From assembly GCA_963667925.1 (NCBI GenBank), contig OY764080.1:2641310-2705309 (forward strand): a DNA stretch of 64,000 bases, written 5' to 3'. Numbering within the stretch: the stretch's first letter is position 1; each line of letters begins with the position of its first letter. The notes beneath the pieces were generated by a model. It searched no databases. It worked only from the letters and a program-made list of their open reading frames with translations, and had not been told where the DNA came from. This DNA is from Chloroflexota bacterium (GTDB lineage Bacteria > Chloroflexota > UBA11872). Below are positions 3,096 through 33,990 of this stretch, piece after piece. Both the position numbers and the translations under genes were made by a program.

Positions 3096-3116
3096 CTCAA
3101 GCTCTCTGGCCAAAAC

Positions 3117-7924: not shown

Positions 7925-7958
7925 GCGGTCAATCGGAATCACCAGAAGGGCTTCTCAG

Positions 7959-12245: not shown

Positions 12246-13760
12246 CTAGGCCGTGCGCCCCCAGCGCTCGATACGCTGGTTCAGCAAGTCCAGGTCCTGC
12301 TGAAGGATGCGGTCACCCTCGGTTACGGCGTTTTCGATGGCCTCTTCCACCGATGCGTCGCCGGTCATGGCCGTGTGAGCAATCCCGCGCCAGGCCAACC
12401 ACTCCAGCTGGTTGGGGTGGTAGCCCTGCCAGGTCCGGAACTCGCCGCGCACGAAGGTGGCCAGCAGGTCCTGCCGCTCTGGCGGGGCCGCCAGGTTCTC
12501 CGGCGACTCCAGTGCGTCCCACCGGCAGGGCAGGAAACCACGGTCAATCGCGGCCCGCGCCTGCATCTCGGGGCCCGCCATCCAGACGAGGAAGTCTACG
12601 GCTGCCTCAACCACGCCCTGGCGTTGCGCCGAGTCGAGCACGTAGTGCCCCTGGTTGGTGCGGTGTACGGCCACCGTGCCAGTCACGTCACCCTTCGGCT
12701 GCGGCGCCAGCGACCAGCGGAAGCGGTCGCCGATGCCGATCACGGCGTTGCCCTTGGCGTCGCCGCGGCGCAACTCGGCCCCCACCTTGCCGGCCGTGAA
12801 GAGGTCGCCAAACTCACCCGCCAACTCGCGCTGCGCATCGGTCGGCGCCGAGACCTCGTGCTTGTGAATGAGGTCGACCCCGAACTTGAAGCCCTGATCG
12901 CCACCGTCGTCAAACTGACTGGTGTGCGTGCCGTCAGGCGAGATGAACTGCTTGCCACCGAAGCCCCAGGCAATCGGCGTCCAGAAGTGGATGTCGCCAC
13001 CACCTGAGATTCGGGTACCCCAGATTCCGTTGTCCGGGTCGGTGGACTGCTTGGCCGCCTCGAGCCACTCGTTGCTGTAGGTCCAATCGGCCGACGGCTC
13101 GGGCACGCCGTACTGTTCATACAGATCAATGTTGTAGTAGTGACCGCTCACGTTGCCCTGGTAGGGAAGGCCGAAGGCAGCACCCTGCCACGTGTCCACG
13201 AACGGGTAGTCGAGATCGTAGTTGACCGTGTAGGAGTCCGGCTCGAAAATCTGCTCGGCCCCATCAAAGGTGGGGTGTCGGTCCAGCACGTCGTTGATCT
13301 GGGTAAACGATTCCTGGTGGGCGCCGAAGAAGCTCCACTCGAGCAGAGCAGCGGCCGGCGCGCTACCCGCCGCGATGCGAATCGCGAACGTCTCGTAGAA
13401 CAGGTCGGCCTGCGGTGTGAACTTGATCCTGATATCGGGCCGTGCCTTCGCGAAGTTGGCGAGCGCCCAGGTGGTCGACTTGCCGCGCACGCCAGAGACG
13501 TGGTCGCTGATGAACTCGAACTCCACCGTCTTGGACTGAGGCGCCGCCATCGCCTGTGTGGCGACCTTCTCAGCAGCGACCGGAGCTTCCTTGGTCACCG
13601 CTTTGACGACTTCCTCTTGAACCGCCTGCGTGACGCTCTTCTCGACGGCCTCAGTCTCGCCACAAGCAGCCAACGTGGCCGCGCCCGCGGCGCCGATGCC
13701 AAGTGCCGAAGTCACCTTGAGGAATCGCCGTCTCGATATGTTCAGGATCATTTGCCTCAA
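12246..13760 (-). CDS. ABC transporter substrate-binding lipoprotein (TAT signal), paralog A
   Basis: 504 aa. SRRRFLK TAT motif plus lipobox LAAC. FEFISDHVSGVRGKSTTWALANF core is ~75% identical to the adjacent paralog. No permease genes adjacent. Confidence 0.8.
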   Translation of the reverse strand: MRQMILNISRRRFLKVTSALGIGAAGAATLAACGETEAVEKSVTQAVQEEVVKAVTKEAPVAAEKVATQAMAAPQSKTVEFEFISDHVSGVRGKSTTWALANFAKARPDIRIKFTPQADLFYETFAIRIAAGSAPAAALLEWSFFGAHQESFTQINDVLDRHPTFDGAEQIFEPDSYTVNYDLDYPFVDTWQGAAFGLPYQGNVSGHYYNIDLYEQYGVPEPSADWTYSNEWLEAAKQSTDPDNGIWGTRISGGGDIHFWTPIAWGFGGKQFISPDGTHTSQFDDGGDQGFKFGVDLIHKHEVSAPTDAQRELAGEFGDLFTAGKVGAELRRGDAKGNAVIGIGDRFRWSLAPQPKGDVTGTVAVHRTNQGHYVLDSAQRQGVVEAAVDFLVWMAGPEMQARAAIDRGFLPCRWDALESPENLAAPPERQDLLATFVRGEFRTWQGYHPNQLEWLAWRGIAHTAMTGDASVEEAIENAVTEGDRILQQDLDLLNQRIERWGRTA

Positions 13761-13853
13761 CCCTCCCTGCGTGTCAGACCGAATACGTAACAGCGCTTCG
13801 AGCTCAAACTATATAACAACGAATGAGGCCCAGCGAAGTTGCGTTATGACAGC

Positions 13854-13886
13854 ATTCGGGCGCGGTCTACAAGACCGCGCCCGAAT
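13854..13886. terminator. Hairpin attcgggcgcggtct-acaag-agaccgcgcccgaat downstream of SBP gene 13925-15469
   Basis: Perfect inverted repeat; its stem is identical to the copy at 12177-12209. Confidence 0.5.
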
Positions 13887-13924
13887 AGCCGTGCGCCGCG
13901 TAGGCGCTTACGACGAACGAATAA

Positions 13925-15469
13925 CTAAGCCGTACGTCCCCAGCGCTCGATGCGCTTGTTCAGCAAGTCCACGTCCTGACGAAGGATTCGGTCGCCTTCG
14001 TTCACGGCGCTCTCGATGGCCTCTTCAACCGACGCCTCGCCGGTCATGGCCAAGTGGGCTCGACCGCGCCAGGCCAACCACTCGCGCTGGTTGGGGTGGT
14101 ACCCCTGCCAGGTGCGGAACTCGCCGCGCACGAAGCTAACCAACAGATCTTGCCGCTCGGGTGGGGCCGCCAGGTTCTCCGGCGACTCCAGCGCGTCCCA
14201 GCGGCAGGGCAGGAAGCCACGGTCGGTGGCCGCGCGTGCCTGCATCTTGGGACCCGCCATCCAGACCAGGAAGTCCACGACTGGCTCAACCACGCCTTGT
14301 CGTCGCGCCGAGTCAATGACGTAGTGCCCCTGGTTGGTGCGGTGCACGGCCACGGTGCCGGTGACGTCACCCTTCGGCTGCGGCGCCAGCGCCCAGCGGA
14401 AGCGGTCGCCAATGCTGATCACCGCGTTGCCCTTGGCGTCACCGCGCCGCAACTCGGCGCCGATCTTGCCGGCCGAAAAAGCGTCGCCGAACTCGCCCGC
14501 CAGCTCGCGCTGTGCGTCCGTCGCCGGCGAGACGCCGTGCTTGTGGATGAGATCCACCGCGAACTGGAAGCCTTGGTCGCCGCCGTTGTCGAAGTGCTCG
14601 GTGTGGGTGCCGTCGGACGAAATGAACTGCTTGGCGCCGAAGCCCCAGCTAATCGGCGTCCAGTAGTGAATGTCGCCGCCGCCGCCGATCCGGGTGCCGT
14701 AAATCTCGTTGTCCGGGTCGGTCGCCTGCTTGGCGGCGTCCAGCCACTCGTTGCTGTACGTCCAGTCAGCGGACGGCTCGGGCACGCCGTACTGGTCGTA
14801 CAGGTCAATGTTGTAGTAGTGGCCGCTGACGTTGCCCTGATAGGGCAGACCGAAGGCGTGCCCCTGGAACGAGTCCACGAACGGCCAGGTCGTGTCGTAA
14901 TTGATCGTGTAGGAGTCGGGCTCGTAGATCAGGTCAGCCCCGTCGAAGTCGGCGTGGCGGTCCAGCACGTCGTTGATCTGGACGAACGAGTCTTGATGGG
15001 ATCCAAAGAATCCCCAACTCAACAAGGCCGCAGCCGGGGCGCTGCCCGCCGCGATGCGAATGCCGAACGAGTCGTCAAAGCCCCCGCCCTGCGGCGTGAA
15101 CTTGATCTTGATGTCCGGCCGTTCCGCCTGGAAGTTGGCCAAAGCCCAGGTGGTGGACTTGCCACGCACGCCCGAGACGTGGTCGCTGACGAATTCGAAC
15201 TCAACGGTCGTGCTGGCCGGCGTCATGGCGGGTGCCGCCGTGACCACCTTCTGGACGACGACCTCGACTTCCTTGGTCACCTCTTTGATGACTTCTTCTT
15301 CGACAATCTGCGTCACGATCTTCTCGACGACCTGCGTCTCACCGCAGGCTGCCAGCGTGGCCGCACCCGCGACGCCGACACCGAGCGCCGAACTCGCCTT
15401 TAGAAATCGCCGTCGTGTCAGATCTCGAGCCATCTGCCTCATCCTTCCCTCAGTACGCCAACCCGCCAA
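13925..15469 (-). CDS. ABC transporter substrate-binding lipoprotein (TAT signal), paralog B
   Basis: 514 aa. TRRRFLK plus LAAC lipobox; tandem duplicate of 12246-13760. Confidence 0.8.
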   Translation of the reverse strand: MAGWRTEGRMRQMARDLTRRRFLKASSALGVGVAGAATLAACGETQVVEKIVTQIVEEEVIKEVTKEVEVVVQKVVTAAPAMTPASTTVEFEFVSDHVSGVRGKSTTWALANFQAERPDIKIKFTPQGGGFDDSFGIRIAAGSAPAAALLSWGFFGSHQDSFVQINDVLDRHADFDGADLIYEPDSYTINYDTTWPFVDSFQGHAFGLPYQGNVSGHYYNIDLYDQYGVPEPSADWTYSNEWLDAAKQATDPDNEIYGTRIGGGGDIHYWTPISWGFGAKQFISSDGTHTEHFDNGGDQGFQFAVDLIHKHGVSPATDAQRELAGEFGDAFSAGKIGAELRRGDAKGNAVISIGDRFRWALAPQPKGDVTGTVAVHRTNQGHYVIDSARRQGVVEPVVDFLVWMAGPKMQARAATDRGFLPCRWDALESPENLAAPPERQDLLVSFVRGEFRTWQGYHPNQREWLAWRGRAHLAMTGEASVEEAIESAVNEGDRILRQDVDLLNKRIERWGRTA

Positions 15470-22653: not shown

Positions 22654-23748
22654 TCATGCGCTCGCCGAGACTGCGGTGGCGGCATCGGCAGCGGCTGCCA
22701 GAATGTCTGCCGCTTCGTCGATCTGCGCGTCGCTGACTTGATGGTGCGTGACCAAGCGGAAGGTGTCTCCGCGAGCACCGCCAACACCGACGCCGTGCCT
22801 GGCGGCCTCCTCGGTGAAGACATCCAGGTCGAGCACGTCCGGATCCCAGGTCACGAAGATCAGGTTTGTGAAGACGGGCGAAACCAGACGCAGGCCGGGC
22901 AAGTCGTCGATGATGTCGCCAAGCTGTTTGGCTCGGCGGTGGTCGTCCGCGAGTCGCCCGGGGCTGTCGCGAAGGGCGATGAGGCCCGCGGCGGCCATTA
23001 CGCCGGCTTGCCGCATTCCGCCGCCGACGAGCTGACGGGTTCGGCGGGCGCGATCGATCAGGTCGCCGGATCCGACAATCATCGAGCCGAAGGGGGCGCC
23101 GAGGCCCTTGGACAGGCAGAACTGGACGGTGTCGGCGCCTTCAGCCAAGTCGGATACCGGAAGGTCCAGAGCGGCGGCGGCGTTGAAGATGCGGGCGCCG
23201 TCGATGTGGATTCGCAGACCGTGGCGCTGGGCCAGATCGGCGAGTTCGCGCATGACCTCGGGGCCCCAGGCCACGCCGCCGCGCCGGTTGTGGGTGTTTT
23301 CGGTCCAGATGATGGCGGGGTTGAGCGAGTGGGTGGTGACGGGTCCGACGTGGGGCTCGATGTCGGCTGGGGTGAGCCAGCCGGGGGTCTGGATGGGGAT
23401 GACGCTGCAGCCGGCCAATGCGGCGAAGCCGCCGGCCTCGGCGAGGGTGACGTGCGACTCGGGATCGACCAGGAGGGTGTCGCCGCGGCGCGAGAGGGTG
23501 AGCAGGCTGACGAGGTTGCCCATGGTGCCGCTGGTGACGAAGAGGGCGGCGTCCTTGCGGAAGAGTTGGGCGGCGAGGTCTTCGAGCTCGCGGACGGTGG
23601 GGTCTTCGCCGCCGAGGTCGTCGCCGACCACGGCCCGGGCCATGGCCTCACGCATCTCTTCGGTGGGCGTGGTTTGGGTGTCGCTGCGGAGTTCGATGCG
23701 AAACGGGGGCACGGGGGCCTCCGGCCAAGGGTGGCGAATGGGGGTCAT
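22654..23748 (-). CDS. ltaE: Low-specificity L-threonine aldolase (PLP-dependent, beta-eliminating-lyase family)
   Basis: Real start is ATG 23748 (MTPIRHPWPEAPVPPFRIELRSDTQTTPTEEMREAMA...). The 184 ORF-track codons upstream of it are a low-complexity artefact of the G-rich tract. Confidence 0.8.
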   Translation of the reverse strand: MTPIRHPWPEAPVPPFRIELRSDTQTTPTEEMREAMARAVVGDDLGGEDPTVRELEDLAAQLFRKDAALFVTSGTMGNLVSLLTLSRRGDTLLVDPESHVTLAEAGGFAALAGCSVIPIQTPGWLTPADIEPHVGPVTTHSLNPAIIWTENTHNRRGGVAWGPEVMRELADLAQRHGLRIHIDGARIFNAAAALDLPVSDLAEGADTVQFCLSKGLGAPFGSMIVGSGDLIDRARRTRQLVGGGMRQAGVMAAAGLIALRDSPGRLADDHRRAKQLGDIIDDLPGLRLVSPVFTNLIFVTWDPDVLDLDVFTEEAARHGVGVGGARGDTFRLVTHHQVSDAQIDEAADILAAAADAATAVSASA

Positions 23749-23816
23749 TCTAGTGGCTGGGGGACGGGGCGCGGGACGATGCGGCGGGGGTGGGAAATGG
23801 GGCTCTCGCGCGCAAT

Positions 23817-23840
23817 AAGAGTTTTTTCCAAAAAACTCTT
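23817..23840. other. Perfect AT-rich hairpin AAGAGTTTTTT-CC-AAAAAACTCTT embedded in the G-rich tract
   Basis: 11-bp perfect inverted repeat. A second imperfect hairpin, ggtgcggc...gctgcacc with an internal T5, lies immediately 3'. Confidence 0.6.
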
Positions 23841-24098
23841 GAGGTGCGGCGGGGGACTTTTTGGCTGCACCGGGGACGGGACGGGCCACGGGCTGTGACG
23901 GACGAATCGGGGGGTAGGTCGGGACGGCAGCGGGGCGCGGGTGGGCGAGGTTTTGGCGGGGTGGCGCGGCGCGGCGAGAGATAGCTTGGGCCGGATTTTT
24001 TGGGCGGGTTGGCGAGGGAGGTTGGGGTTGGGAGGGGGTGGCTAGACGGTGCCGGGGACGCTGAGGGCGTGGGCGTGGTGCGGGGGTGGGGCGGTGAA

Positions 24099-24206
24099 GG
24101 AAGGGGAGACGGAAGAGGGCAGAGAAGTGGAAGCGGAAGGGGAGAGGTGAGAGGGCAGAGGAGTGAGATCGGAAGGGGACAGGGAGGGAGCGAGGTACGA
24201 GAAGTT
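24099..24206 (+). repeat. ~36-bp imperfect tandem repeat, about 3 copies (ggaaggggagaNgNNagagggcagagNagtgNaNNc)
   Basis: Units at 24099-24134 and 24135-24170, plus a partial third from 24171. Confidence 0.6.
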
Positions 24207-24469
24207 CGAGGTGGGGGAGGAGGCGGTGGAGGAGCGGGGCGGTGGTGGACATGTGGGAGTGGTTGTGAGATATACTCAGATAGTGTACATTGTTTGACAA
24301 GGGAAGGCGAGGGGAAGGAGTGAGCTGAGAGGGGAGGTCGAGCGCCTGGCAGGCGGGGAGATCGGGGTGGCAGGTGGCGCTGGGGGCGTGGGTTGCTGCT
24401 GGGTCCCGGCCGCGGACGCCGGGATGACGGGGGCGGGGAGGGCGCGGGACGAGGGTTAGGGGCAGTTTG

Positions 24470-24523
24470 GGATGTGTTCAGTGGGTTGGGTGGATGTGTT
24501 CACTTTTGAGGGGGATGTGTCCA
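24470..24523 (+). promoter_or_regulatory. Three direct repeats GGATGTGT(T/C)CA spaced 22 and 21 bp apart (iteron-like candidate binding sites)
   Basis: Copies at 24470-24480, 24492-24502 and 24513-24523. The two-helical-turn spacing places them on one DNA face. They lie ~315 bp upstream of the 24838 gene. Confidence 0.45.
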
Positions 24524-24837
24524 GTGCTCGGCGGGCGCCAGGGATGGCGGGGGCTGGCAATGACGGCAGCGCAGGCAATGAAATCAGTGCATGCGTTGCT
24601 GGTGGTGCGGGCAACGCTGGATGGGGTGGCGGGGCGGCGGACTCAACGCCGGGCTGCGGGCAAACGCTCGGCACGGGTTGCGGCGGCTAGAATTGAGGCA
24701 GCATTAAAGGGGCGGCCCCGGTGCGTGCAGCGGGGACGGTTTGAAGTTCGGTCGGCGACTACGCCGTCACAACGAAGGGGCGCCCACATGCGACGACTGA
24801 TCCAGAGCCGAACAGGCACAGGCTTTCGGGGAACCCG

Positions 24838-25122
24838 ATGACGGCCGACCTGTCCGCGCTCGACATCGTGCGACGATTGACGGCGATTGAGGCCACGCTG
24901 CCGACGTTCGCGACCAAGGCCGACATTCACTCGCTGCGAGCGGATATCCAGGTGATGCGGTCGGAGTGGAAGGCTGACCTTGGCGAAATGAAGGCCGACC
25001 TGCACGCGCGGGAGGCGCGGCTGATCAAGTGGATTGCGGGGCTGGTGGTGGCCGGGGCGGCCGCCGCGGCTGGGGTTGCGATTGCGGTCAACCAGATTGT
25101 CGGGCCTGGGGTTGGGGGCTGA
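24838..25122 (+). CDS. Small coiled-coil protein with C-terminal transmembrane anchor (XhlA/DUF1640-like)
   Basis: 94 aa. N-terminal heptad-rich coiled coil (ADIHSLRADIQVMRSEWKADLGEMKADLHAREARLIKW), then hydrophobic IAGLVVAGAAAAAGVAIAV. Confidence 0.55.
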   Translation: MTADLSALDIVRRLTAIEATLPTFATKADIHSLRADIQVMRSEWKADLGEMKADLHAREARLIKWIAGLVVAGAAAAAGVAIAVNQIVGPGVGG

Positions 25123-25311
25123 TGGGGGCATTCGCAGGAAGCGGCGCGAACGAACGCGGAAGGCCTCAGAATGATTCAGCGCGGCGGGTCATAGGGCAGC
25201 AGAGGATGTCGGCGGTACACTTGACCATGGTCAGGAGGGTCACGGCTAGCAGACCCGCGGGATTCGTCCCCCTGGCCACGTTCTTTTCTCAGCGCCAGCC
25301 CTGAGGTAGCC

Positions 25312-26913
25312 GTGGGTACGGAGAACGCGGGCCGCGACTTTCCGGGCGAATACCGCCTTGACGTTGAAGACTTCGGGCCAATCGCCAAGGCCAGCGTGGA
25401 CCTGCGGCCGCTGACGGTTTTCATTGGACCGAGCAACACGGGCAAGTCGTATCTGGCGATACTGGTATATGCGTTACATCAATGTTTTGGCCAAGGGAAA
25501 AAACATCCATACGGAGACCGACTGCTGAGTTTGATCTTGGATTCTTTCATTGATTCAGGATTCAACGAAGAAACGGACAATATTCTTGAATACTTTAGCG
25601 ATTGGCTGTTGTGTCGGGGTAATAGGGAGTCACAAAGCAACCCACAAGACGATACGAATCTCGAGCTCGACTTCCCGATGCAAGTGGACTCGCGAATCCG
25701 AACCGTGTTTGAGCAAGTGGACGACTTTAGCAATTATATTACGAGCAGGATTTCTGGGTACTTCGGTTTTGGGGCTGAAGAAATCGATCTGCTGATACGA
25801 CGATCGAAGTATGTGTCGGATGCCAGAGTCGAATTATCTATTCCTCGGCTGGCCGGCGACGGGATCGTTGGATATAGCATTAGAATAAACGAAGAAGGGG
25901 TTAAATTTTCGGGAAAAATTGGCGGCGCTGAACCAGTCGTCAACGAAATCGAACGATCTGCGGCTCTTCATGACGCGCCATTGAATCTGAGACATCTCCA
26001 ACGGTTGGCGCGACAGGATGTCGACGACGATGAAGACCTGGTGTTCTCGCTTACGCGGTTCATGGACGCTGCGTTCAGGGAGTTGACTAGACCGATAAAT
26101 CGCAATGCCTATTACTTACCGGCCGATCGTACCGGTGCTATGCACACCCATAAGGCCGTAGTTAGAGCCTTCATCCAAAGTGCCCCATTCAGCACGGCGA
26201 GCCTGACTGCCGATAGTCCTCTCTTCTCAGGAGTATTGGGGGACTTTCTGAGTGAGCTGGTCGGGTTGGATCCCATTCGAACTCGCGTTCGGACAAAGTT
26301 CCGGCGTGTCCCTGCACGACTCAGCGGCAAGTTGGCGACGGATCTGGAGCATGACGTCCTCAAGGGCGCCATACGGCTGGAAGACGCAGGGAGCGGTTAT
26401 CCGACCTTCGAATATCGTCCGGATGGCTGGGATCGGTCCCTGTCGTTGGTGCAGGCGTCTTCCATGGTCGCCGAACTGGCACCGGTGGTGCTCTACTTGC
26501 GGCACCTTGTGCGATCGGACGACGTTCTCATCATCGAAGAGCCGGAGTCGAATCTGCATCCGGCCATGCAGGTTGAGTTCACGCGACAGCTTGCGGGGCT
26601 GGTGCGGGCTGGGATTCGGGTGATTGTGACCACGCACAGCGAGTGGGTGCTGCAAGAGTTGGCCAACCTGGTGCGCGTGTCGAAGCTTCCCGAATCCGCG
26701 CGAGAGGGAATTGCCGGGGGTGACGTGGCGCTTGATGCGAGCCAGGTCGGGGCCTGGTTCTTCAAGCCGGACTCGAACGGCGAGGGTTCCACGGTAAGCG
26801 AGATCGGTCTGGATGAAGAGTCCGGCCTTTACCCGACCGACTTCGAAGAGGTGGCCCGGGCGATGCACAACGATTGGGCCGAGATTTTCAGCCGGCTTGG
26901 AGAGGCTGAGTGA
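25312..26913 (+). CDS. ABC-type/OLD-like AAA ATPase (AAA_15/AAA_21-type; PtuA/AriA/GajA-like architecture)
   Basis: GTG start. N-terminal LTVFIGPSNTGKS Walker A; degenerate signature SLSLVQASS; Walker B DVLIIEEPESNLHP; H-loop VTTHS. The central ~0.65 kb of the gene is low-GC. Confidence 0.8.
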   Translation: MGTENAGRDFPGEYRLDVEDFGPIAKASVDLRPLTVFIGPSNTGKSYLAILVYALHQCFGQGKKHPYGDRLLSLILDSFIDSGFNEETDNILEYFSDWLLCRGNRESQSNPQDDTNLELDFPMQVDSRIRTVFEQVDDFSNYITSRISGYFGFGAEEIDLLIRRSKYVSDARVELSIPRLAGDGIVGYSIRINEEGVKFSGKIGGAEPVVNEIERSAALHDAPLNLRHLQRLARQDVDDDEDLVFSLTRFMDAAFRELTRPINRNAYYLPADRTGAMHTHKAVVRAFIQSAPFSTASLTADSPLFSGVLGDFLSELVGLDPIRTRVRTKFRRVPARLSGKLATDLEHDVLKGAIRLEDAGSGYPTFEYRPDGWDRSLSLVQASSMVAELAPVVLYLRHLVRSDDVLIIEEPESNLHPAMQVEFTRQLAGLVRAGIRVIVTTHSEWVLQELANLVRVSKLPESAREGIAGGDVALDASQVGAWFFKPDSNGEGSTVSEIGLDEESGLYPTDFEEVARAMHNDWAEIFSRLGEAE

Positions 26914-27383
26914 GCGGACTCGTTCAACGGGTCCGGGCGAACCTGGACGGCAGGTGCATCGCCACGCGGATTCGCAAACAGGGCTGCAGCGTGTCCCTGG
27001 ATGGCGCACCGGCTCCCCGCGTGATCGTCGACTTTGACAAACTGGGATCGCCGCTCGGGCCGTCAGATCAGCGGTGCGACTACCTGTTCGTGGCGGACGC
27101 CGCCGATCGTGACGGGTGGGTGGCGCCGCTGGAGTTGAAGCGCGGCAGGTTTCACGCCGGTGAGTTCGTCCGGCAACTACAGGCAGGCGCCACGGCAGCG
27201 GAGAAGCTGGTGCCTCGGAGTGCAAAGGTCAGGTTTCGGCCAATTGCTGTTGTTGGTGGCGGCATGACGAAGGAAGAGTGGAACAAATCGCGGCAGAAGC
27301 GGAACGCGGTGCGTTTTCGTGGCAAATACGAGCTTCTGCGATCTTTGTCGTCCGGCCAGAAGCTGGCCGACAAGCTTTGGTGA
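26910..27383 (+). CDS. Small protein with putative minimal PD-(D/E)xK nuclease motif, translationally coupled to the upstream ATPase
   Basis: GTG start overlaps the ATPase stop (GTGA). 157 aa. Beta-strand Asp residues (RVIVDFD, CDYLFVAD) followed by PLELK (E-x-K). Basic C-terminal tail. Confidence 0.6.
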   Translation: MSGLVQRVRANLDGRCIATRIRKQGCSVSLDGAPAPRVIVDFDKLGSPLGPSDQRCDYLFVADAADRDGWVAPLELKRGRFHAGEFVRQLQAGATAAEKLVPRSAKVRFRPIAVVGGGMTKEEWNKSRQKRNAVRFRGKYELLRSLSSGQKLADKLW

Positions 27384-27520: not shown

Positions 27521-27916
27521 CTACGTCGAGGTCTTTTCGTGCCACCAGCTCGCTAGGGCTAGATCGTAAGCGTGCTCCACTTGCTGCGCATGGTCGTTTT
27601 CAGCCGCGAGCGGCAAGACGATGTCCGCGTGATACGGGTTCCCGGGTCGCGGCGTGTGGCCGACCGCGCGACCATTGGAAGTCGCCACATCTCGCGACAC
27701 AACCGCCCAACCCTCGAATGGACCTGTGCGGTTCACACTGTCGTCCTCGGCTGATCGATGCACGACGCCCATAGCAGCTTCTTCGAGACGATCCACCGAG
27801 ATATATCGCGGATTGGGGGCGTGCATGAAAACATCGTGCGGTGTGTTGTTTCTTCTAGCCTTTCCTGCACGTCGACTCGAATACACACGGCGGCCCAGCG
27901 GCGACGAATGCGACAT
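27521..27916 (-). CDS. Hypothetical protein (131 aa), third gene of the minus-strand hypothetical operon
   Basis: Start lies 8 nt downstream of the stop of the 27925-28575 gene; composition is protein-like; contains an R-x5-H motif (RPGNPYH). The call is weak. Confidence 0.35.
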   Translation of the reverse strand: MSHSSPLGRRVYSSRRAGKARRNNTPHDVFMHAPNPRYISVDRLEEAAMGVVHRSAEDDSVNRTGPFEGWAVVSRDVATSNGRAVGHTPRPGNPYHADIVLPLAAENDHAQQVEHAYDLALASWWHEKTST

Positions 27917-27924
27917 ATAGCCAG

Positions 27925-28575
27925 TCAGCGCTGGATGGATGCCGCGCGCTGCAAATCGCGCAAGGCATCACGAATGAACCCATCCACCCTGTTTGGAGCT
28001 AGATCGTAATGGGCGCGTCGATGCACGCCATCAATCGTGAGCAGAATGAGGGCGGACCCGTCCGAGCCAAAGAGTAAGAGGAGTCCTTTTCGGTACCCGC
28101 CGCTGACGTTGACTGCGACTTCGCGATTGGACGTTGAGTAGACGTCCGCCCGTTCGTCCAAGTCAAAGTATCGCCATAGACGGTACGCATTTGTCAGCGC
28201 CGTCTTTGACGGCGGCTCGTAATTCTCGTCTTCGGCTTCGATTAGGAGGTCGTTGGCGAACTGTTCGTAGCCAATCGTTGGTGCCATTGGCTCCGACAAC
28301 AGCGCCAAGAACAAGGGATCAAGTGAGGTTTCTGAACGGCGACTACTGCTGTAACTATCGGCCAAGGCAGCCGCATGAAACTCGTACGCCAGCAACGGCG
28401 ACGGCTCCGTGTCCTTGTGAAAGCGATTACATCGGACCAAATCAGCGACACCGCCCATGCCGTCAACCGACAGGACACTGCCAGACGACGAGTCAGCCAC
28501 AGCCTTCGTGACGAGAGCAAGGGCATCGTCCAATAAGTCCGCGCGCGAAGCCTGTCGCAGCTTATCAGTCGCCAT
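27925..28575 (-). CDS. Hypothetical protein (217 aa)
   Basis: Start at MATDKLRQ; overlaps the upstream gene's stop by 11 nt (operonic). No recognisable domain. Confidence 0.5.
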   Translation of the reverse strand: MATDKLRQASRADLLDDALALVTKAVADSSSGSVLSVDGMGGVADLVRCNRFHKDTEPSPLLAYEFHAAALADSYSSSRRSETSLDPLFLALLSEPMAPTIGYEQFANDLLIEAEDENYEPPSKTALTNAYRLWRYFDLDERADVYSTSNREVAVNVSGGYRKGLLLLFGSDGSALILLTIDGVHRRAHYDLAPNRVDGFIRDALRDLQRAASIQR

Positions 28576-29041
28576 CGCCCACCTGCTCGATTTCAGCACG
28601 GCGCTCGGCCAGGACGTGCTTCGCGACGTTAAGATAGCTGTCGTAGGTGCTCTCCAATTGGCGAGACAGATGAAGAGCATCGGCAGGACCAATAGCGATT
28701 CGAGCTATCGGCTTAATATCGGTCCCGGCTGTACGCAACGCCTCCATCGTTTTTTCGTCTTGTTTGGCTGCTTCAAGCAGGACCGGTGGCGGCACGGCAG
28801 CCATGGTTAGAAACAGCATATGATGGTCAGTGTCGTACTGAACAAGGAACGCATTGGCGTAGGCTACGGGCAACTCGTCAGCGGGCTTCCAGTTGATCGG
28901 GAGTTCCACGGACCCGATCTCAATGTTGTCGGGTTCACTCACGGCTGGCAGGCCAAGGTTGGCACGAAACTGGTCAGGGCATGCCGAACGGCGGGCGACG
29001 AGACATGGAAAACCCAGCAAGCCATCGTGTCTCTCCCGCAC
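28565..29041 (-). CDS. Hypothetical protein (158 aa)
   Basis: First gene after an AT-rich putative promoter region; no recognisable domain. Confidence 0.5.
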   Translation of the reverse strand: MRERHDGLLGFPCLVARRSACPDQFRANLGLPAVSEPDNIEIGSVELPINWKPADELPVAYANAFLVQYDTDHHMLFLTMAAVPPPVLLEAAKQDEKTMEALRTAGTDIKPIARIAIGPADALHLSRQLESTYDSYLNVAKHVLAERRAEIEQVGDGD

Positions 29042-29314: not shown

Positions 29315-29659
29315 TCAGGCCGCGCGTCGGTCGTAGAGGACCTCCGAGTCTTCCAGCATTCGGCTGAGCATGGAGTTGGGGTTGGGGCGGTAGGCGGTGA
29401 ACGTCTCGTAAGAGCGGATCAGCAGGTCCACGGGCAGCAGGAAGCGTTCGGCGATGGCGCGGCGGATGGGGTTGCCGCGCCGGGGCGGCTCGACGCCGGG
29501 GCGAAGCACCACCATCAGGTCCAGGTCGCTGTTTTCGTCTTCTTCGCCGCGGGCGCAGCTGCCGAAGAGGATGACTTGCTCGGGCTCGAAGCGCTCGACG
29601 ATGAGTTGGGTGATGGCTTCGATGGTTTCCCGGTTGAGGGGGTCTTCGACGACGCGCAT
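29315..29659 (-). CDS. Minimal nucleotidyltransferase (MNT) domain protein, no adjacent HEPN partner
   Basis: Real start is ATG 29659 (MRVVEDPLNRE...). NTase motif LFGSCARGEEDENSDLDLMVV. The ORF-track N-terminal extension is a Pro/Arg-rich artefact. Lies 5 nt downstream of the R-M gene stop. Confidence 0.75.
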   Translation of the reverse strand: MRVVEDPLNRETIEAITQLIVERFEPEQVILFGSCARGEEDENSDLDLMVVLRPGVEPPRRGNPIRRAIAERFLLPVDLLIRSYETFTAYRPNPNSMLSRMLEDSEVLYDRRAA

Positions 29660-29664
29660 CGGGG

Positions 29665-32600
29665 CTAGACCGCCACCCGAGATTCGGTGTCGCCGGCTGC
29701 CAGGGCGTTCATGTAGGCGAGGATTAGGGCTTTGGTGCGGTAGTGGCCGAATTGGGCTTTGTCGTGGCGTTGGATGATGGGGAAGGTGGAGAGGATGTAG
29801 GCGGCGTCTTCGCGGTCGAGGCCGTAGAGGTGGAAGTAGAGGGCGTCGAGGCGGGCTCGGAGGTGGCGGCGTTGTTCGGGGTCCCAGGGGAAGGGTGGGC
29901 CGTGGTGGCCGAGGTCGCGGGCGAAGGGGGCCATGTCGTGGGCCGTGTAGGTGAGGCGGAGGACGTGGTGGCGGACGAGGTCGGCGGCGGTGCGGTCGCC
30001 GAAGGGGCGGTGGTAGGCGTCGGGCGCGATCATGGGCAGCTGTTCGAGGATGTACCACGTGAAGTTGTTCCCGGGAACTTTCTGCCGTGCGATGTAGTCG
30101 AAAGCGAAGGAATTCAGGTTGGCGACTACTTGGCAGACGTCCATAGGCGGATCCTCGGACTCATCGAGGAGTGGCAGTAGGTTCAAGGAGTGTCCAGCTC
30201 CTACCTGTGGCATGACGGCGGCGATCATCGTTCGCGCATTGGTAACGGATGTGACGTTCTTGAATGTGATCATCCACTTGTGTGGCGAGCCCCAATGCCG
30301 GTCGTCGAGCTGCACAAAGTAGCGAGGTATGGGCAGGCGATCGAAGTCCTGTTTCTCAAGCGCACGGATCGTCTCTTGCTGCCCGGGTCTGAATAGATTC
30401 TGTTGGTTCGTTGTCGTGTCTGCTGCACGATGATCAAATGCCTGCACCATCTTGCCTTCGTACAACGGCAGATACTGATCCTTGCCGCGCTTCCAGCGAT
30501 TCCCTTTGACCGGATAGAACCCCTCGTCTTGCAGTTGAACCGCGGTGCGGAAGAGATGCGAGTCATTGGCCATGTGGAACATGTTTGCGTAGCGGACGGG
30601 CCAGGCGCGGTGTTCCTCGCCGGTTGATCGGTCCACCAGGACGGGGTGCTGCTGGTAGATGCGACGGGTGATGTCGGCGTCGCGGCGGGTGCGGAAGATG
30701 GGGGCGGTGCCGGTGTTGGGGTTGACGCGGGCGAAGTCGTCGGGCGTGAGGGTGAAAGCGCGGTCTGGATCGTTGATGGTGTTGGTGTCGGGCAGGAAGA
30801 AGCCGCAGCGGGTCTCGGGGATCGTGCGTTGGGGGCCGCCGACGATGAGGGCGCAGAACTTGAAGCGGGAGTCGATGTCGGGGAAGAACGGCGGCAAATC
30901 GGTGCCCAGGCGACGGTTCTCGAAGTCGTAGATGCCGGCGACGCGGCCGGTGGTGGAGACGGACTGGAAGAAGCGGGCGGCGGTGCGGTCGGCGTAGATG
31001 CCGGAGGGGGTGAGCAGGCCGACGAGGCCGTTGGGCTTGACGAGGCGGAGGGAGCGTTCGACGAAGAGGGAGTAGAGGTTGATGTCGCCGCCGCCGAGCA
31101 GGGGGTAGTGGCCGGAGGCGCGAATGACCTGGCCGAGGCGGTCGGCGCGGGCCTTGGCCTGGTCGAAGGATTCGGCCAGCGGGTCGCCCTGCTCGCGCAG
31201 GCGCTTGATGCCCTGGCGGCGGGCGGCGGCGGTGGGGGCGCGGGCGAGGTCGGGGTCGCGGGTGGCGAACCATTCGACTTCCTGGAGCTTGATGCGGTCC
31301 CAGGGGGGATTGCCGATGACGGCGTCGAAGCCGCCTTCGGGGGTCTGGTTTTGCCAGTGGCGCCAGACGCCGGGGAAGGCGGCTTCCCAATGCAAGAAGG
31401 ATTCTTTTTTGGCAATAGATTTGGATTGGTTTAGGAGGGTGGTGAAGGCGGGGTCTGTTGACTCGGGCTTGCGTTGGTTCGGGGTTGGTTGCGCGGAGGA
31501 CCCCTCACCGATTTCCGCCGAAGACGGCGGAATCCCTCGGCTGGCTCGGGACAGGTTCTGCCTCTCCCCTTGGAGAGGGGAAGATCCGTGCGGCTCCGCA
31601 GGGTGTGAATCCGCAGGGGGGTGCTGGTGGGTGGGATTACGAGCGGAAGACGGGCGGGTCTGAGACGCCGCCCCTACGAAAGAGGGAGAGGACGGCGACT
31701 CGGACAGGGTTGCAGGTGAGGGTGGTTCGACACGGGCCTTCGAGGGACTGCGGCCCGGCTCACCACGAACGGTTGGGTGGCGGTGGGTCAGGAGGGTGAA
31801 TGCTTGGGTGGGGTCCGCGCCCAGGGTCTCGGCCACCGGCGCCTCGAATGTTGCGCGTTGGCGGACGCGCATGCCGGCGGTGTGCCAGCGGAGGCCGGCG
31901 AGGGTGTCGAGGAAGCCGCGGAGGTCGGCGGTGGCGGATTCGACGGCGTGGAAGAGGGTCTCGGACTGGTGGACTTCGGTGACGTCGGCGTCGGAGAGCT
32001 GTTCGATCTGACGCATGCCGTGGGCGGCGTTTTCGACGCCCTGCAGGGCGCTGGTGACGAACATGGGCACCTTGAGGCGCTGTAGCTCGGTTTTGGCGTC
32101 GGCGATGCGGAGGCCGAGGAGGGAGTCGCCGCAGCGGAGGTGGTGGTCCAGGAAGGAGAGGGGCGCGCCGACGGTGAAGCTGTGGAGCCAGAGGGAGACC
32201 TTGGCGAGTTCGACGGTGAGGGGGTTCTTGTCGACGCCGTAGATGCAGCGCTTGAGGACGAGGCGGCGGATGATGGCCTGGTCGGTGAGTTGGGCCTGGT
32301 TGACGGTCCAGCCGGACTCGGCGGCGCGGTGCAGGATGGCGTCGCGGATGGCGGCGACGCGGTCCAGCAGGGGTGAGTGGTAGGGGTCGTCCGCGTCCAG
32401 CCAGTCGGCGAATGCGGGAGCGACTTCGACCAGGTCGGCGATGTAGTCGGTGAGGAAGTCGACGGCGCTGACGAGGAAGTGGCCGCTGCCCATGGCGGGG
32501 TCGAGCACCTTGAGATCGAGGACGGCCTGGGCGGGGTCCAGGCTGGCGAGCTCGGCGCGGCGTTCAGATTTGGGGCGGCGGTCGCCGCGGAGTTCGCCGG

Positions 32601-33990
32601 CCCTGGCCTCGAAGGCGTCCAGGCGTTCCTCGATGAGCGGCTTGAGGGTTTGGTCGACGATGAGGTCCACGAGGTCCTGCGGGGTGTAGAAGCTGCCGCT
32701 GTCCTTGCGGGCGTAGGGGTTGGGGCGGATCTCAATCTGACCTTCGGCATCCAGCCGCGGTTCTTGCTCCAGCAAGCGTTCGTAGAGGGAGCCGAGTTGC
32801 TGGACGGACATGTCGCGGTAGTTGACGTAGCTGGGCTGGCCGTCGGCCTGGGTGTGGCTGAGGTCGTAGACGACGTCGGCGATTACGTCATCGGGGAGGC
32901 GGACCTGGTTGAGCAGCGGGGCGGCGTGTTGGGCGAAGAGACCGCCGTTGTAGGGCGGGAGGCCGATGGAGCGGTCGCCGACGTCGATCAGGCGAAACAG
33001 GGTGGTGAGGTGGTCGTAGTAGCTGGAGGCGGCGGTGGAGAAGGTGTCGTTGCGGTCTTTGCGCCGGGCCACGTCGTCGCGGACGCGCTTGCGGAGGCCG
33101 TAGTCGTCGTAGGCGGCGTCGTTGACGGGCAGCAGGCCGCGGTCCTCGGCGTAGAGGACGAAGAGCAGGCGGTAGAGAAAGATGAGGGCGGCTTCGCGGA
33201 TTGCCGGCATGGGCTGGTCGGACTTGTCGGCCAGAGCCTGGAGGAGGCGGGGAAAGACGCGCTGGAAGACGACGCCGGCGAGGCTCTGGGCGACGCGCTG
33301 TTCGTAGCGGCGGCCCGCCGCCAATGCTGTTTCAAGAAACGCGGCAACTGCTCCTGGACGTCGTACGAAGGCGGAGCGGCGGAAGAGCAGGTGGAAGGTG
33401 CGGAGGGCGTCCTGGTCGTCGGCTTCCAGGAGGGCCTGGAGGTCGGCTTCGTAGTAGGCGGTGGCGCGGGGGCGGGTTTTCTGGTCGTAGAGCCGCCAGA
33501 CGGCGCCGTTGGTGAGGATGCCCCAGCGGAGGTCGCCATCGGTGACGGTCTCGGCCTCGCGGAGGTAGCGGAGGATCTGGGCGTGGGGCGAGGAGGCCTG
33601 GAGTCCCTTGCCGGAGCCGCGGGTGTCGAGGGGACGGCCGAAGCGCTTGAGCTCGGCGACGGCGAGGGCCTCAAGGAATGGGCTGGCCGTGGACCCGGTG
33701 GCGCGGGTCTTGGCCTGGGCGTCGGGGAAGAGCAGCAGGTCGGGGATGTTTTCGCCGCCGCTGGAGGTTTGCTGGGGGAGGTCGTGGGTCCAGCCGAGGA
33801 GTTGGAGCAGGGGGCGGATGAGGTCCTGCTCGGTCTGGGTTTCGTTGGGGTTGTGGTCGGCGGGGAAGTCCCGGAAGAGGCGGCGGGCTTCGTCACGGAA
33901 GGCGGTGAAGGCGGGGCGCTGGGATTGCCGCTCGGGGGTCTGGCGGATGCCGTCGGTGAGGAAGTATTCGGTGAAGAGGTGGCCGGGCAT
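29665..33990 (-). CDS. Type IIG restriction-modification enzyme: N-terminal PD-(D/E)xK endonuclease domain fused to gamma-class N6-adenine DNA methyltransferase (Eco57I/PglX-like), with in-frame low-complexity insertion
   Basis: 1441 aa. N-terminal ENIPDLLLFPD...LAVAELKRF (PD...ExK). GSFYTPQDLVDLIV (FYTP motif). VIGNPPWDRIKLQE (NPPW motif IV). No helicase or Walker motifs, so not Type I or ISP. A ~120-aa Pro/Ser-rich insert is encoded by repeat DNA at 31440-31800. Confidence 0.8.
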   Translation of the reverse strand: MPGHLFTEYFLTDGIRQTPERQSQRPAFTAFRDEARRLFRDFPADHNPNETQTEQDLIRPLLQLLGWTHDLPQQTSSGGENIPDLLLFPDAQAKTRATGSTASPFLEALAVAELKRFGRPLDTRGSGKGLQASSPHAQILRYLREAETVTDGDLRWGILTNGAVWRLYDQKTRPRATAYYEADLQALLEADDQDALRTFHLLFRRSAFVRRPGAVAAFLETALAAGRRYEQRVAQSLAGVVFQRVFPRLLQALADKSDQPMPAIREAALIFLYRLLFVLYAEDRGLLPVNDAAYDDYGLRKRVRDDVARRKDRNDTFSTAASSYYDHLTTLFRLIDVGDRSIGLPPYNGGLFAQHAAPLLNQVRLPDDVIADVVYDLSHTQADGQPSYVNYRDMSVQQLGSLYERLLEQEPRLDAEGQIEIRPNPYARKDSGSFYTPQDLVDLIVDQTLKPLIEERLDAFEARAGELRGDRRPKSERRAELASLDPAQAVLDLKVLDPAMGSGHFLVSAVDFLTDYIADLVEVAPAFADWLDADDPYHSPLLDRVAAIRDAILHRAAESGWTVNQAQLTDQAIIRRLVLKRCIYGVDKNPLTVELAKVSLWLHSFTVGAPLSFLDHHLRCGDSLLGLRIADAKTELQRLKVPMFVTSALQGVENAAHGMRQIEQLSDADVTEVHQSETLFHAVESATADLRGFLDTLAGLRWHTAGMRVRQRATFEAPVAETLGADPTQAFTLLTHRHPTVRGEPGRSPSKARVEPPSPATLSESPSSPSFVGAASQTRPSSARNPTHQHPPADSHPAEPHGSSPLQGERQNLSRASRGIPPSSAEIGEGSSAQPTPNQRKPESTDPAFTTLLNQSKSIAKKESFLHWEAAFPGVWRHWQNQTPEGGFDAVIGNPPWDRIKLQEVEWFATRDPDLARAPTAAARRQGIKRLREQGDPLAESFDQAKARADRLGQVIRASGHYPLLGGGDINLYSLFVERSLRLVKPNGLVGLLTPSGIYADRTAARFFQSVSTTGRVAGIYDFENRRLGTDLPPFFPDIDSRFKFCALIVGGPQRTIPETRCGFFLPDTNTINDPDRAFTLTPDDFARVNPNTGTAPIFRTRRDADITRRIYQQHPVLVDRSTGEEHRAWPVRYANMFHMANDSHLFRTAVQLQDEGFYPVKGNRWKRGKDQYLPLYEGKMVQAFDHRAADTTTNQQNLFRPGQQETIRALEKQDFDRLPIPRYFVQLDDRHWGSPHKWMITFKNVTSVTNARTMIAAVMPQVGAGHSLNLLPLLDESEDPPMDVCQVVANLNSFAFDYIARQKVPGNNFTWYILEQLPMIAPDAYHRPFGDRTAADLVRHHVLRLTYTAHDMAPFARDLGHHGPPFPWDPEQRRHLRARLDALYFHLYGLDREDAAYILSTFPIIQRHDKAQFGHYRTKALILAYMNALAAGDTESRVAV
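31440..31800. repeat. Composite GC-rich hairpin-repeat insertion (elements B + A) inside the R-M coding sequence, reading frame preserved
   Basis: Contains ggaagacgggcgggtctgagacgccgcccctacg (element B, also at 35315-35346) and ggttcgacacgggcc...ggctcaccacgaacgg (element A, also at 34075-34123), plus further small hairpins (ccgccgaagacggcgg). Confidence 0.7.

Follow-up and report, generated by a model that had tools for sequence, protein, structure and literature searches.

Two overlapping genes occupy positions 25312 to 27383 of the window, as we call the whole 64,000-nucleotide stretch of Chloroflexota DNA (contig OY764080.1, assembly GCA_963667925.1) analysed here. Gene A encodes a 533-residue ATPase and gene B a protein of 157 residues, and both are made from one message, with the GTG start codon of the second gene lying on the TGA stop codon of the first. 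What is more, Shine-Dalgarno-like sites precede both starts, namely GAGG at 25303-25306 for gene A and GGAGAGG at 26899-26905 for gene B. A scan of the locus for sigma-70 promoters found nothing, and the only terminator-like site, approximately 440 nt downstream of the pair, is no better than chance. The features needed below are listed here, where WonAB is a system of the Vibrio cholerae WASA-1 prophage (Nat Microbiol 2025, PMC12137116), PD-T4-4 a system of E. coli ECOR58 recovered in a functional phage-defence selection (Vassallo et al. 2022, PMC9519451), and PDC-M47 an untested and unannotated candidate in PADLOC-DB (cassette CAS_00156, FAM_00005>>FAM_02059; Payne et al. 2024 preprint).

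25312..26913, + strand: gene A, GTG start; 533-aa OLD-type ABC ATPase (WonA / PD-T4-4_A / PDC-M47A-like), predicted sensor/activator subunit
25426..25449, + strand: Walker A, GPSNTGKS, residues 39-46 with Lys45; from motif search, invariant in 45 homologues
25489..26391, + strand: hypervariable low-GC insert, residues ~60-360, delimited by GC content and identity; proposed specificity/sensor region
26113..26130, + strand: YLPADR, residues 268-273 with Arg273; by alignment the counterpart of the WonA P-A-x-R-S motif that carries R182
26443..26463, + strand: degenerate ABC signature SLVQASS, residues 378-384; S383 and S384 invariant
26530..26547, + strand: Walker B, IIEEPE, residues 407-412 with E409/E410; aligns with IEEPE of WonA
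26629..26640, + strand: H-loop, TTHS, residues 440-443 with His442; aligns with TTHS of WonA
26644..26910, + strand: C-terminal extension, residues 445-533, from alignment with the extensions of WonA and PD-T4-4_A; predicted nuclease-docking surface
26910..26913, + strand: GTGA overlap, gene B GTG on gene A TGA, read from the sequence; translational coupling
26910..27383, + strand: gene B, GTG start; 157-aa PD-(D/E)xK-fold protein (WonB / PD-T4-4_B / PDC-M47B-like), predicted nuclease effector
27027..27038, + strand: VDFD, residues 40-43, with Asp41 and Asp43 invariant; at or just past the C-terminal end of beta-1
27072..27089, + strand: RCDYLF, residues 55-60, with Cys56-Asp57 invariant; the "PD" position, at the start of beta-2
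27132..27140, + strand: E75-L-K77, the (D/E)xK motif on beta-3; aligns with the invariant ELK(G) of WonB
27174..27176, + strand: invariant Gln89, in the helix after beta-3, 12 residues past Lys77
29315..29659: MNT, PDC-S09-like

The initial annotation had placed two overlapping reading frames at these positions and had read them as translationally coupled, and both statements hold. Namely, of 60 loci examined, 50 retain the 4-nt NTGA overlap and 4 more overlap by 1 nt, which brings coupling to 54 of the 60. An ATPase homologue stands directly upstream of the small gene at every one of the 58 evaluable loci, spread over at least 8 phyla, and the two genes are the only recurrent ones in their neighbourhoods. 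The small protein itself has 1,322 representatives at 50% identity (E<=1e-3). In the window neither gene is interrupted, and no catalytic residue is missing. The pair is, in other words, a self-contained module that moves as a unit through very different neighbourhoods, often as cargo of Hma systems. Decayed and IS-disrupted copies also exist, one copy is frameshifted, and some copies are surrounded by housekeeping genes.

Turning to the ATPase, the Walker A, signature, Walker B and H-loop motifs that had been quoted for it were all recovered by motif search. Within YLPADR, residues L269, P270, A271 and R273 are invariant among homologues, and the signature aligns with ASSGQQ of WonA and with SSS of PD-T4-4_A. 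We take the IEEPE of WonA to be the motif that holds the mutated E300, and its TTHS would be the one that holds the mutated H333. Pfam assigns the protein to AAA_15 (9.5e-19) and AAA_21 (3.9e-11); the same scan, taken to E<=1, contains no TOPRIM, no HNH and no DUF3696, the last having been suggested earlier for the C-terminus, and the rest of its output is DUF2813 and a chance match to DUF7833. In structure comparison, the ABC head lies nearest SMC, PtuA, Rad50, GajA and OLD. Pfam, the PADLOC models and the fold comparison uphold, therefore, the earlier description of an OLD/ABC-type AAA_15/21 ATPase with no fused effector. As for the C-terminal extension, the PD-T4-4_A model reaches into it as far as residue 526. 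[quoted passage not shown]

The small protein had been proposed to carry a D...E-x-K arrangement compatible with a restriction-endonuclease fold. The arrangement is real and is conserved in 39 homologues, far beyond chance: D41, D43, C56, D57, E75 and Q89 are invariant and K77 is nearly so. The fold is equally borne out, as the AlphaFold model is confident (pLDDT 91) and its structural matches are PD-(D/E)xK nucleases only. Each of the motifs has its equivalent in the two validated relatives. In particular, VDFD is matched by VDGC in WonB and by FTLD in PD-T4-4_B, the Cys-Asp dyad is common to all three proteins (KCDFLF in WonB, SCDLVI in PD-T4-4_B), and the spacing from the lysine to the invariant glutamine is 12 here, 12 in PD-T4-4_B (K108-Q120) and 10 in WonB (K72-Q82). 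The ELK(G) of WonB is presumably the motif that holds its mutated K71. The cysteines around the catalytic dyad form a cluster that might add a metal- or redox-dependent feature, one not described for WonB; in the window protein the nearly invariant Cys148 is replaced by Ser, which could weaken the putative metal site. Pfam, NCBIfam and PHROGs have no family for the small protein, a search of PDB sequences gave one chance match (a calcium-channel subunit) for the single sequence and none for the profile, and a Foldseek search of the viral BFVD models gave weak generic PD-(D/E)xK matches only, such as UL24 and Mrr.

What do these two proteins resemble most closely? The best PADLOC matches of the ATPase are PD-T4-4_A (1e-34, 118.6 bits) and PDC-M47A (7.2e-28), the former in two stretches, of which the better comprises residues 374-526 at the C-terminal end, with the insert left unmatched. 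For comparison, a true PD-T4-4_A scores 3e-123 on the same model. BLASTP gives 1.7e-23 to a PD-T4-4-like ATPase, with the C-terminal extension aligned, and approximately 2e-9 to WonA. For the family of the small protein, hhalign reports a probability of 94.4% with WonB (E 8.9e-8) and of 77.6% with PD-T4-4_B (E 1.9e-5), over 77-109 columns centred on the catalytic core and with the four motifs in register. Forty column-shuffled profiles, and reversed ones, reached at most 1.1% probability; against unrelated PD-(D/E)xK families the control is an indirect one, namely the PADLOC library. What is more, a partner protein from a Vibrio phage bridges the WonB and PD-T4-4_B families. Judged at the level of sequence, then, both proteins are detectably homologous to components of validated systems.

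The detection models tell a complementary story. The initial annotation had proposed a run of PADLOC, and this was productive for the ATPase, through PD-T4-4_A and PDC-M47A, and empty for its partner: the window small protein matches no PADLOC partner model at E<=1, PDC-M47B and PD-T4-4_B included, and it likewise matches neither NERD nor HEC-02B. Among its relatives, 22 of 39 members in one set and 47 of 137 in another match PDC-M47B, weakly (best 1.7e-7), whereas the PD-T4-4_B models match none of the 39 (E<=1) or of the 137 (E<=1e-3), and no other PADLOC nuclease model matches either set below E=1e-3. That the window partner finds no partner model marks a divergent clade and, with family matches to PDC-M47B no stronger than 1.7e-7, current tools would not call the system. 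Two further assignments were considered and rejected, namely membership of MADS, for which there is only a weak match of the ATPase to MAD3 (8e-5; the cutoff is 420 bits) and no MADS gene nearby, and a relationship to Shedu, for which the SduA match is only 0.022 over 19 residues.

The most variable part of the pair is the ATPase insert, which makes up about half of the protein, matches nothing known and is modelled at low to medium confidence. Its GC content is 0.44-0.55, as compared with approximately 0.62-0.66 in the flanks. Mean pairwise identity is 35% in the insert, 77% in the N-terminus and 68% in the C-terminus, and among relatives with C-terminal cores 86-100% identical the insert falls to 12-50%. 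ATPases of the L003/L004 type agree with the window type at 86-87% over the C-terminal half (90-100% over residues 401-533), and the accompanying nucleases at 88-90%. One can tentatively read these some 300 residues as an exchangeable specificity cassette in a large, previously unmodelled WonAB-like clade, a possibility to which we give clearly less than even odds. On this tentative reading, the insert would be swapped by recombination between otherwise near-identical operons, the nuclease gene sometimes being swapped too, and the clade would comprise 271 to 1,322 clusters at 50% identity from many phyla, concentrated in marine, possibly sponge-associated, MAGs. If true, it would provide a natural system for studying how the sensors of ABC-ATPase immunity diversify their recognition. 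The mosaic build of the ATPase, with conserved ATP-binding ends and predicted docking tail around a hypervariable, low-GC, recombining insert, is also a testable lead on how specificity changes.

As the initial annotation had stated, the pair sits in a defence-rich setting: in the window it adjoins a Type IIG/DrmMI-like enzyme and the PDC-S09-like MNT, and elsewhere it is embedded in Hma systems. Could it be, then, that the pair is not autonomous but is an accessory or dependent part of a methyltransferase-based system, be it Hma or the Type IIG enzyme here, serving for instance as a reserve effector to be triggered once the methylation-based system is inhibited? Hma genes surround the pair at 13 of 59 genome loci, and at L002 and L062 as well, often with the pair flanked directly by HmaA and HmaB (each matched at E=0); in the window, and likewise in all close relatives among the Chloroflexota, a Type IIG enzyme and an MNT lie beside it, the MNT of the relatives being recognised by DNA-level similarity only; and functional synergy between embedded systems has been discussed (Payne et al. 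2024 preprint). However, at approximately 40 of the 59 loci there is neither Hma nor Type IIG and the immediate neighbours are otherwise unrelated, and the Type IIG gene of the window is convergent to the pair and not co-transcribed with it. The loci L004 and L009 have the liv genes found upstream in the window, and L009 carries the pair with no Type IIG enzyme, so the Chloroflexota association is most simply explained by shared ancestry of one locus. Moreover, WonAB, PD-T4-4 and HEC-02 function alone when cloned, and embedded cassettes were read as independent systems by the same authors (Payne et al. 2024 preprint). We consider non-autonomy, therefore, unlikely. As Hma genes accompany the pair at those 13 of 59 loci only and are absent from the window, the pair is embedded cargo and not a core component of Hma. 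A functional link to three unannotated minus-strand ORFs at 27521-29041 was also considered and dropped, as these ORFs are absent from all related loci.

The toxicity of overproduced WonB, which is high (PMC12137116), raises the question of whether the pair might be a toxin-antitoxin or addiction module, in which a nuclease toxin is held in check by the ATPase and which mainly stabilises its carrier element or island. The patchy, mobile distribution of the pair would agree with this, as would the Pfam label of AAA_21, "putative AbiEii toxin, Type IV TA system". That said, the toxicity of WonB requires WonA together with its ATPase activity, which rules out simple sequestration in WonAB (PMC12137116), and tblastn with the small protein gave zero matches in 72,556 plasmids and 50,697 phage records, a result one would not expect of an addiction module. 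The size of the ATPase and its hypervariable insert also suit a sensor better than an antitoxin, and we regard such a module as very unlikely. It is even harder to see in the pair a housekeeping unit of DNA repair or recombination, that is, a structure-specific nuclease working with an ABC ATPase like RecF, RecN or SbcC. The pair occurs sporadically and keeps no repair genes as constant neighbours; it is embedded in defence systems; decayed and IS-disrupted copies are present; housekeeping enzymes do not typically have an insert that, like this one, is hypervariable, recombines and is poor in GC; and the best sequence-level matches of the ATPase are all defence ATPases. All of this makes a repair function extremely improbable.

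It is our belief, held at a probability of roughly 0.8, that these two genes make up an anti-phage module of the WonAB / PD-T4-4 / PDC-M47 kind. By analogy with WonAB, two copies of the ATPase would pair head to head and form composite ATP sites, its large insert, the variable residues ~60-360, would sense a phage-derived cue, and the 157-aa nuclease would rest on the C-terminal extensions of the dimer. The binding and hydrolysis of ATP would then license the nuclease (D57/E75/K77, with D41/D43 and Q89), which would cut a nucleic-acid target and stop the infection, probably by abortive infection. As regards this target, in WonAB the genomic DNA stays intact and translation stops (PMC12137116), which points to rRNA or tRNA; the same substrates may apply here, and a DNA target is also possible.

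The initial annotation had held that a tiny PD-(D/E)xK partner is without counterpart among the known systems of such ATPases, and in this it was mistaken, as PD-T4-4, HEC-02 and WonAB are already validated. Since both proteins are homologous to components of PD-T4-4 and WonAB, the pair is best seen as a divergent member of that group and not as an undescribed architecture. Its value is practical, in annotation and model building, and no new category of immunity is opened. In particular, PADLOC-DB 2.0 is blind to the partner protein of a widespread two-gene module, so that such systems are missed, above all in uncultured marine lineages, Chloroflexota among them. With this clade added, PD-T4-4, PDC-M47 and WonAB would be joined as one superfamily with the nuclease core D / C-D / (D/E)-x-K / Q.

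The comparison with known systems is clearest where the effector is of another type. Septu pairs PtuA with an HNH protein, PARIS pairs AriA with the TOPRIM protein AriB (DUF4435), and Gabija and OLD carry a fused TOPRIM; here the effector is of the PD-(D/E)xK type instead, and Pfam finds no HNH or TOPRIM domain, fused or adjacent, in either protein. HEC-02, an Hma-embedded ABC ATPase with a NERD nuclease that has been validated with both genes required (Payne et al. 2024 preprint), shares the plan of an ABC ATPase with a separate restriction-fold partner. The ATPase matches HEC-02A weakly (7.9e-14) and only around Walker B and the H-loop, and the small protein has no NERD domain.

WonAB is closer in plan. 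The operon family "OLD-ABC ATPase + novel REase fold", first described in a 2020 survey of ABC ATPases and present in 0.96% of bacterial genomes, both as cited in PMC12137116, acts in the case of WonAB by abortive infection through a block of translation, and defence depends on both genes as well as on the ATPase motifs and the nuclease lysine, and is lost in the R182A mutant of WonA (PMC12137116). Here as there, two genes form the operon, one for an OLD-type ABC ATPase and one for a PD-(D/E)xK protein that measures about 145-170 aa, and the features of that family are found here, namely the ATPase motif set and a small, separate, variant PD-(D/E)xK partner homologous to WonB. The ATPases share P-A-x-R (IPAGRS/IPASRS in WonA), the ASS signature, IEEPE, TTHS and the C-terminal extension; the nucleases are of similar size, share the motif order V-D-x-x / (K/R)-C-D-(F/Y)-L / E-L-K / Q and place the catalytic lysine at K71 in WonB and K77 here. 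That said, the BLASTP relation to WonA is distant and limited to the core motifs, and in the ATPase here the stretch from Walker A to Walker B is longer by about 100 residues (K45-E410, as against K34-E300 in WonA), which form a hypervariable insert. The cysteines differ as well, being C16/C26/C56/C148 in the small-protein family and, in WonB, an N-terminal pair (in most), the Cys of V-D-G-C (in most) and that of the invariant C-D. The signature motifs of the small-protein family, PLELK, DFDKPGSP and QLQAGA, do not occur among the WonAB/Novel-REase matches in the portion of Supplementary Tables 4 and 5 of the same work that the analysis covered (PMC12137116).

PD-T4-4, reported to form higher-order complexes, is the best PADLOC match of the ATPase and agrees with the pair in gene order (A then B), in tight spacing, and in a PD-(D/E)xK partner with the motif order D / C-D / (D/E)-L-K / Q. 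A bona fide PD-T4-4 pair (L064) even cross-matches the PDC-M47 models, just as the pair described here and its relatives do. However, PD-T4-4_B is linked to the small protein at the profile-profile level only and exceeds it in length by about 40 residues, being extended at the N-terminus and carrying an insertion that separates the first motif from the second, and PD-T4-4_A, at about 460 aa, has little of the long insert of the window ATPase. With PDC-M47, finally, the pair is connected by the match of the ATPase to PDC-M47A, by the matches of the small-protein family to PDC-M47B, the one PADLOC partner model that this family does reach, and by the habit of lying embedded in multi-gene defence systems. 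Sequence comparison would thus place the pair as a sister clade of PDC-M47 outside the current models, that is, as a distant and so far unmodelled branch of an already described anti-phage family and not as a new type of system.

The two genes under discussion, together with the two features within them to which we return below, are the following:

25312..26913, plus strand: ATPase gene, GTG start, 533 aa
25489-26391, plus strand: hypervariable low-GC segment (ATPase residues ~60-360), GC 0.44-0.55 vs flanks ~0.62-0.66
26910..27383, plus strand: small ORF, GTG start, 157 aa
27351-27353: small-protein residue 148, Ser where the alignment has a nearly invariant Cys148

The sequence agrees exactly with the initial annotation on both ORFs, their coordinates and the GTGA overlap, in which the start GTG of the small ORF shares bases with the TGA of the ATPase gene, and Shine-Dalgarno-like GAGG (ATPase) and GGAGAGG (small ORF) stretches lie 4-5 nt before the respective starts. 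A motif search of the ATPase finds Walker A GPSNTGKS (K45), a conserved YLPADR (R273), Walker B IIEEPE and H-loop TTHS, along with a degenerate signature, SLVQASS. The protein had also been described as carrying no fused TOPRIM or HNH domain, and this holds: the Pfam scan returns AAA_15 (9.5e-19) and AAA_21, and no TOPRIM, HNH or DUF3696, the last having been suggested as a check on the C-terminus. The AF2 model (pLDDT 73, pTM 0.79) has an ABC head whose nearest structures are SMC, PtuA, Rad50, retron ATPases, GajA and OLD, while the sole match in a PDB profile search is an OLD-family nuclease.

Judging by its predicted structure and its conservation, the small ORF encodes a genuine, conserved protein of the PD-(D/E)xK fold. 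No family in Pfam, NCBIfam or PHROGs matches it, and its close homologues, more than 150 proteins of ~157 aa, include none that is named. An exhaustive profile search at E<=1e-3 gave 1,322 representatives (50% identity level), 271 of them with E<=1e-30, and nearly all of the best 150 are stand-alone proteins of ~155 aa. Across 39 diverse members, C26, D41, D43, C56, D57, E75, Q89, G93 and P111 are invariant, and C16, K77 and C148 nearly so, Ser148 being common to the window protein and the two aligned members nearest to it. The pattern of conserved cysteines (C16, C26, C56, C148) suggests a metal site. WonB and PD-T4-4_B, the nucleases of two validated ABC-ATPase pairs, share the invariant Cys-Asp dyad beside the catalytic Asp.

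When one genome was scanned for each species, 59 loci emerged, all in MAGs; the lineages represented are Chloroflexota, Latescibacterota, Alpha- and Gammaproteobacteria, Gemmatimonadota, Acidobacteriota, Thermodesulfobacteriota and Nitrospinota. Wherever the upstream sequence is long enough (58 loci), the small gene begins where an ATPase homologue (38-88% identical) ends, one copy (L061) being fragmentary and another (L013) split by an insertion; the NTGA overlap is retained in 50 of 60 loci, and another 4 have a 1-nt overlap. When all flanking ORFs were clustered, only the ATPase and the small gene recurred, the adjoining genes ranging from defence genes to LpxC, NAD synthase and FtsZ. The pair is a self-contained, mobile module. 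One copy (L063, 8500-8924), amid glycogen-metabolism genes, is decayed, its nuclease gene being frameshifted into two pieces 3' of an intact ATPase.

In 13 of the 59 loci, and in two further ones (L002 and L062), an Hma (helicase-methylase-ATPase) system surrounds the pair; HmaA and HmaB, which typically flank it, are both matched by PADLOC with E=0. Payne et al. (preprint, 10.1101/2024.01.29.577857) described this arrangement as an "embedded cassette" and showed that the embedded genes are usually a defence system in their own right, ABC ATPases with a TOPRIM, NERD or PIN partner being the most frequent. In the Latescibacterota locus L013, one 432-aa ORF family splits both the ATPase gene and HmaB (7434-9120 and 13222-14902), and it appears that two copies of one inserted element disrupted the embedded module and the host system. 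The surroundings of the pair in the window are different in content:

22654-24300, minus strand: threonine-aldolase-like ORF, 548 aa, Pfam domain only at residues 203-484
24838-25122, plus strand: 94-aa ORF just upstream of the ATPase, without family match
27521-29041, minus strand: three ORFs of 131, 255 and 158 aa (the latter two overlapping), between the pair and the nucleotidyltransferase
29315-29659, minus strand: nucleotidyltransferase, 114 aa, Pfam NTP_transf_2/Polbeta, PADLOC PDC-S09-like (9.5e-12)
29665-33990, minus strand: Type IIG/DrmMI-like enzyme, 1,441 aa

Here, as in the Chloroflexota relatives L003-L008, the pair adjoins the convergent Type IIG/DrmMI-like enzyme and then the PDC-S09-like nucleotidyltransferase. 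Since the upstream liv genes are common to the window, L004 and L009, and L009 lacks the Type IIG enzyme beside its pair, the association seems to reflect common descent of a single locus rather than a functional requirement. The nucleotidyltransferase starts 6 nt past the stop of the Type IIG enzyme, and no HEPN partner is recognisable after it; in L001 and L021 an NTP_transf_2 gene likewise directly follows HmaB. The three minus-strand ORFs, matched by neither Pfam nor PADLOC, recur in none of the related loci; their GC (0.55-0.60) is below that of the surroundings, and they may be a separate insertion or non-coding. The 94-aa ORF, kept in position in Chloroflexota loci L003-L005 (64-79% identity) but not in other phyla, is probably a lineage-specific flanking gene outside the module. 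Further upstream, around 23800-24600, GC skew is very strong (up to +0.67) and both strands carry ORFs that are G-rich and Pro/Arg/Gly-rich; the long Pro-rich N-terminus of the threonine-aldolase-like ORF is probably an over-extended start call, because the Pfam domain is so confined.

By its alignments, the ATPase is a mosaic. Namely, the GC dip of the insert (44-55% vs ~62-66%) recurs in eight aligned homologues (L003-L009 and L021), and relatives with 86-100% identity in the nuclease and in the ATPase parts beside the insert share only 12-50% within it. Mean pairwise identity over 44 loci is 77% at the Walker A end, 35% in the insert, 68% in the C-terminal half and 47% in the nuclease; likewise, for the window against L003/L004, and for L020 against L027/L031/L049, C-terminal halves of 86-95% identity accompany inserts of 30-45%. 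This mosaicism indicates recombinational exchange, suggesting that the insert is an exchangeable cassette, and fits the published variation of related systems in "Insert 1/2" (10.1101/2024.01.29.577857; PMC12137116). The nuclease gene, too, seems to have been exchanged within the operon, as pointed to by L027 and L031 (ATPases 98-99%, nucleases 70% identical) and by L005 and the window (ATPase 83-98% over its three regions, 88% overall; nuclease 67%).

How might such a pair work? In WonAB, both genes are needed for defence, which is abolished by WonA K34A, R182A, E300A and H333A and by WonB K71A; the C-terminal extensions of WonA, when dimerised, are the predicted binding site of WonB, whose degradation is Lon-dependent, and infection is aborted independently of lysis, translation being blocked and genomic DNA left intact (PMC12137116). 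WonB toxicity depends on WonA and its ATPase activity (PMC12137116), so WonAB is not a simple toxin-antitoxin pair. Equivalents of all these residues are present in the window (ATPase K45, R273, E409/E410, H442; nuclease D57, E75, K77). Given this tested template and these residues, we propose that an ATPase dimer would serve as the sensor and license a docked nuclease in an ATP-dependent manner. Homology, motif conservation and coupling of the genes are shown, while complex formation, sensing by the insert, an abortive outcome and the substrate would follow by analogy.

The initial annotation read the locus as a candidate undescribed defence pair; its structural and functional part was largely right and its claim to novelty wrong, as OLD-type ABC ATPases with small PD-(D/E)xK partners are already known and validated. 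The top PADLOC models for the ATPase are PD-T4-4_A (1e-34, extending into the C-terminal extension) and PDC-M47A (7e-28), with NsnB, AriA, HEC-02A, Old, GajA and PtuA weaker. PD-T4-4, from E. coli, has been validated and carries the annotation "ATPase, nuclease", its partner being described as PD-(D/E)xK, and PDC-M47 is a candidate that the cassette table lists as FAM_00005>>FAM_02059 with a count of 66. The window small protein matches no PADLOC partner model, and its family matches PDC-M47B weakly (22/39 and 47/137 members, best 1.7e-7) and no other PADLOC nuclease model below 1e-3 in either set; as PADLOC holds many PD-(D/E)xK models, this is an indirect control of specificity. An authentic PD-T4-4 pair from an E. 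coli plasmid (A 3e-123, B 1e-43) matches PDC-M47A (6e-92) and PDC-M47B (2e-5) as well, and PD-T4-4 and PDC-M47 are therefore sisters.

For profile-profile comparison, alignments were built of PD-T4-4_B and of WonB, the latter from the supplement of PMC12137116. The small-protein family matches WonB with 94.4% probability (E 8.9e-8, 77 columns) and PD-T4-4_B with 77.6% (E 1.9e-5, 109 columns), the two matching each other with 72% (E 3.4e-5, 59 columns). Forty column-shuffled controls, and reversed controls as well, stayed at <=1.1% probability and scores <=18, where the real alignments score 51.5 and 38.7. The V-D-F-D, R-C-D-Y-L-F, E-L-K and Q motifs of the family align in register with both nucleases, and its K-to-Q spacing, 12, is identical to that of PD-T4-4_B. 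A partner from a Vibrio phage links PD-T4-4_B (98.5%) with the family (82.7%). In Vibrio phage 1.202.O (L066, Peduoviridae, P2-like; 2020-4051), a PD-T4-4-type pair (469-aa ATPase and 209-aa partner, 8-nt overlap) lies between the repressor and integrase genes, near the position of defence cargo such as old in P2-like phages. For the ATPase, BLASTP E-values are 1.7e-23 to a PD-T4-4-like ATPase and ~2e-9 to WonA, and signature, Walker B, H-loop and C-terminal extension align. The PD-T4-4 effector is listed as an HNH nuclease in a 2026 preprint (10.64898/2026.07.10.737580) and as PD-(D/E)xK elsewhere (PMC10952713, 10.1101/2025.07.10.664194, PMC12137116); our alignment of 21 homologues, with D55, C88-D89, K108 (in a (D/E)-L-K-S motif) and Q120 invariant, supports the latter. 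The value of the window pair lies in annotation and in a lead on how such sensors diversify, and the locus is a divergent member, not covered by current models, of the known family of OLD-type ABC ATPases with PD-(D/E)xK partners.
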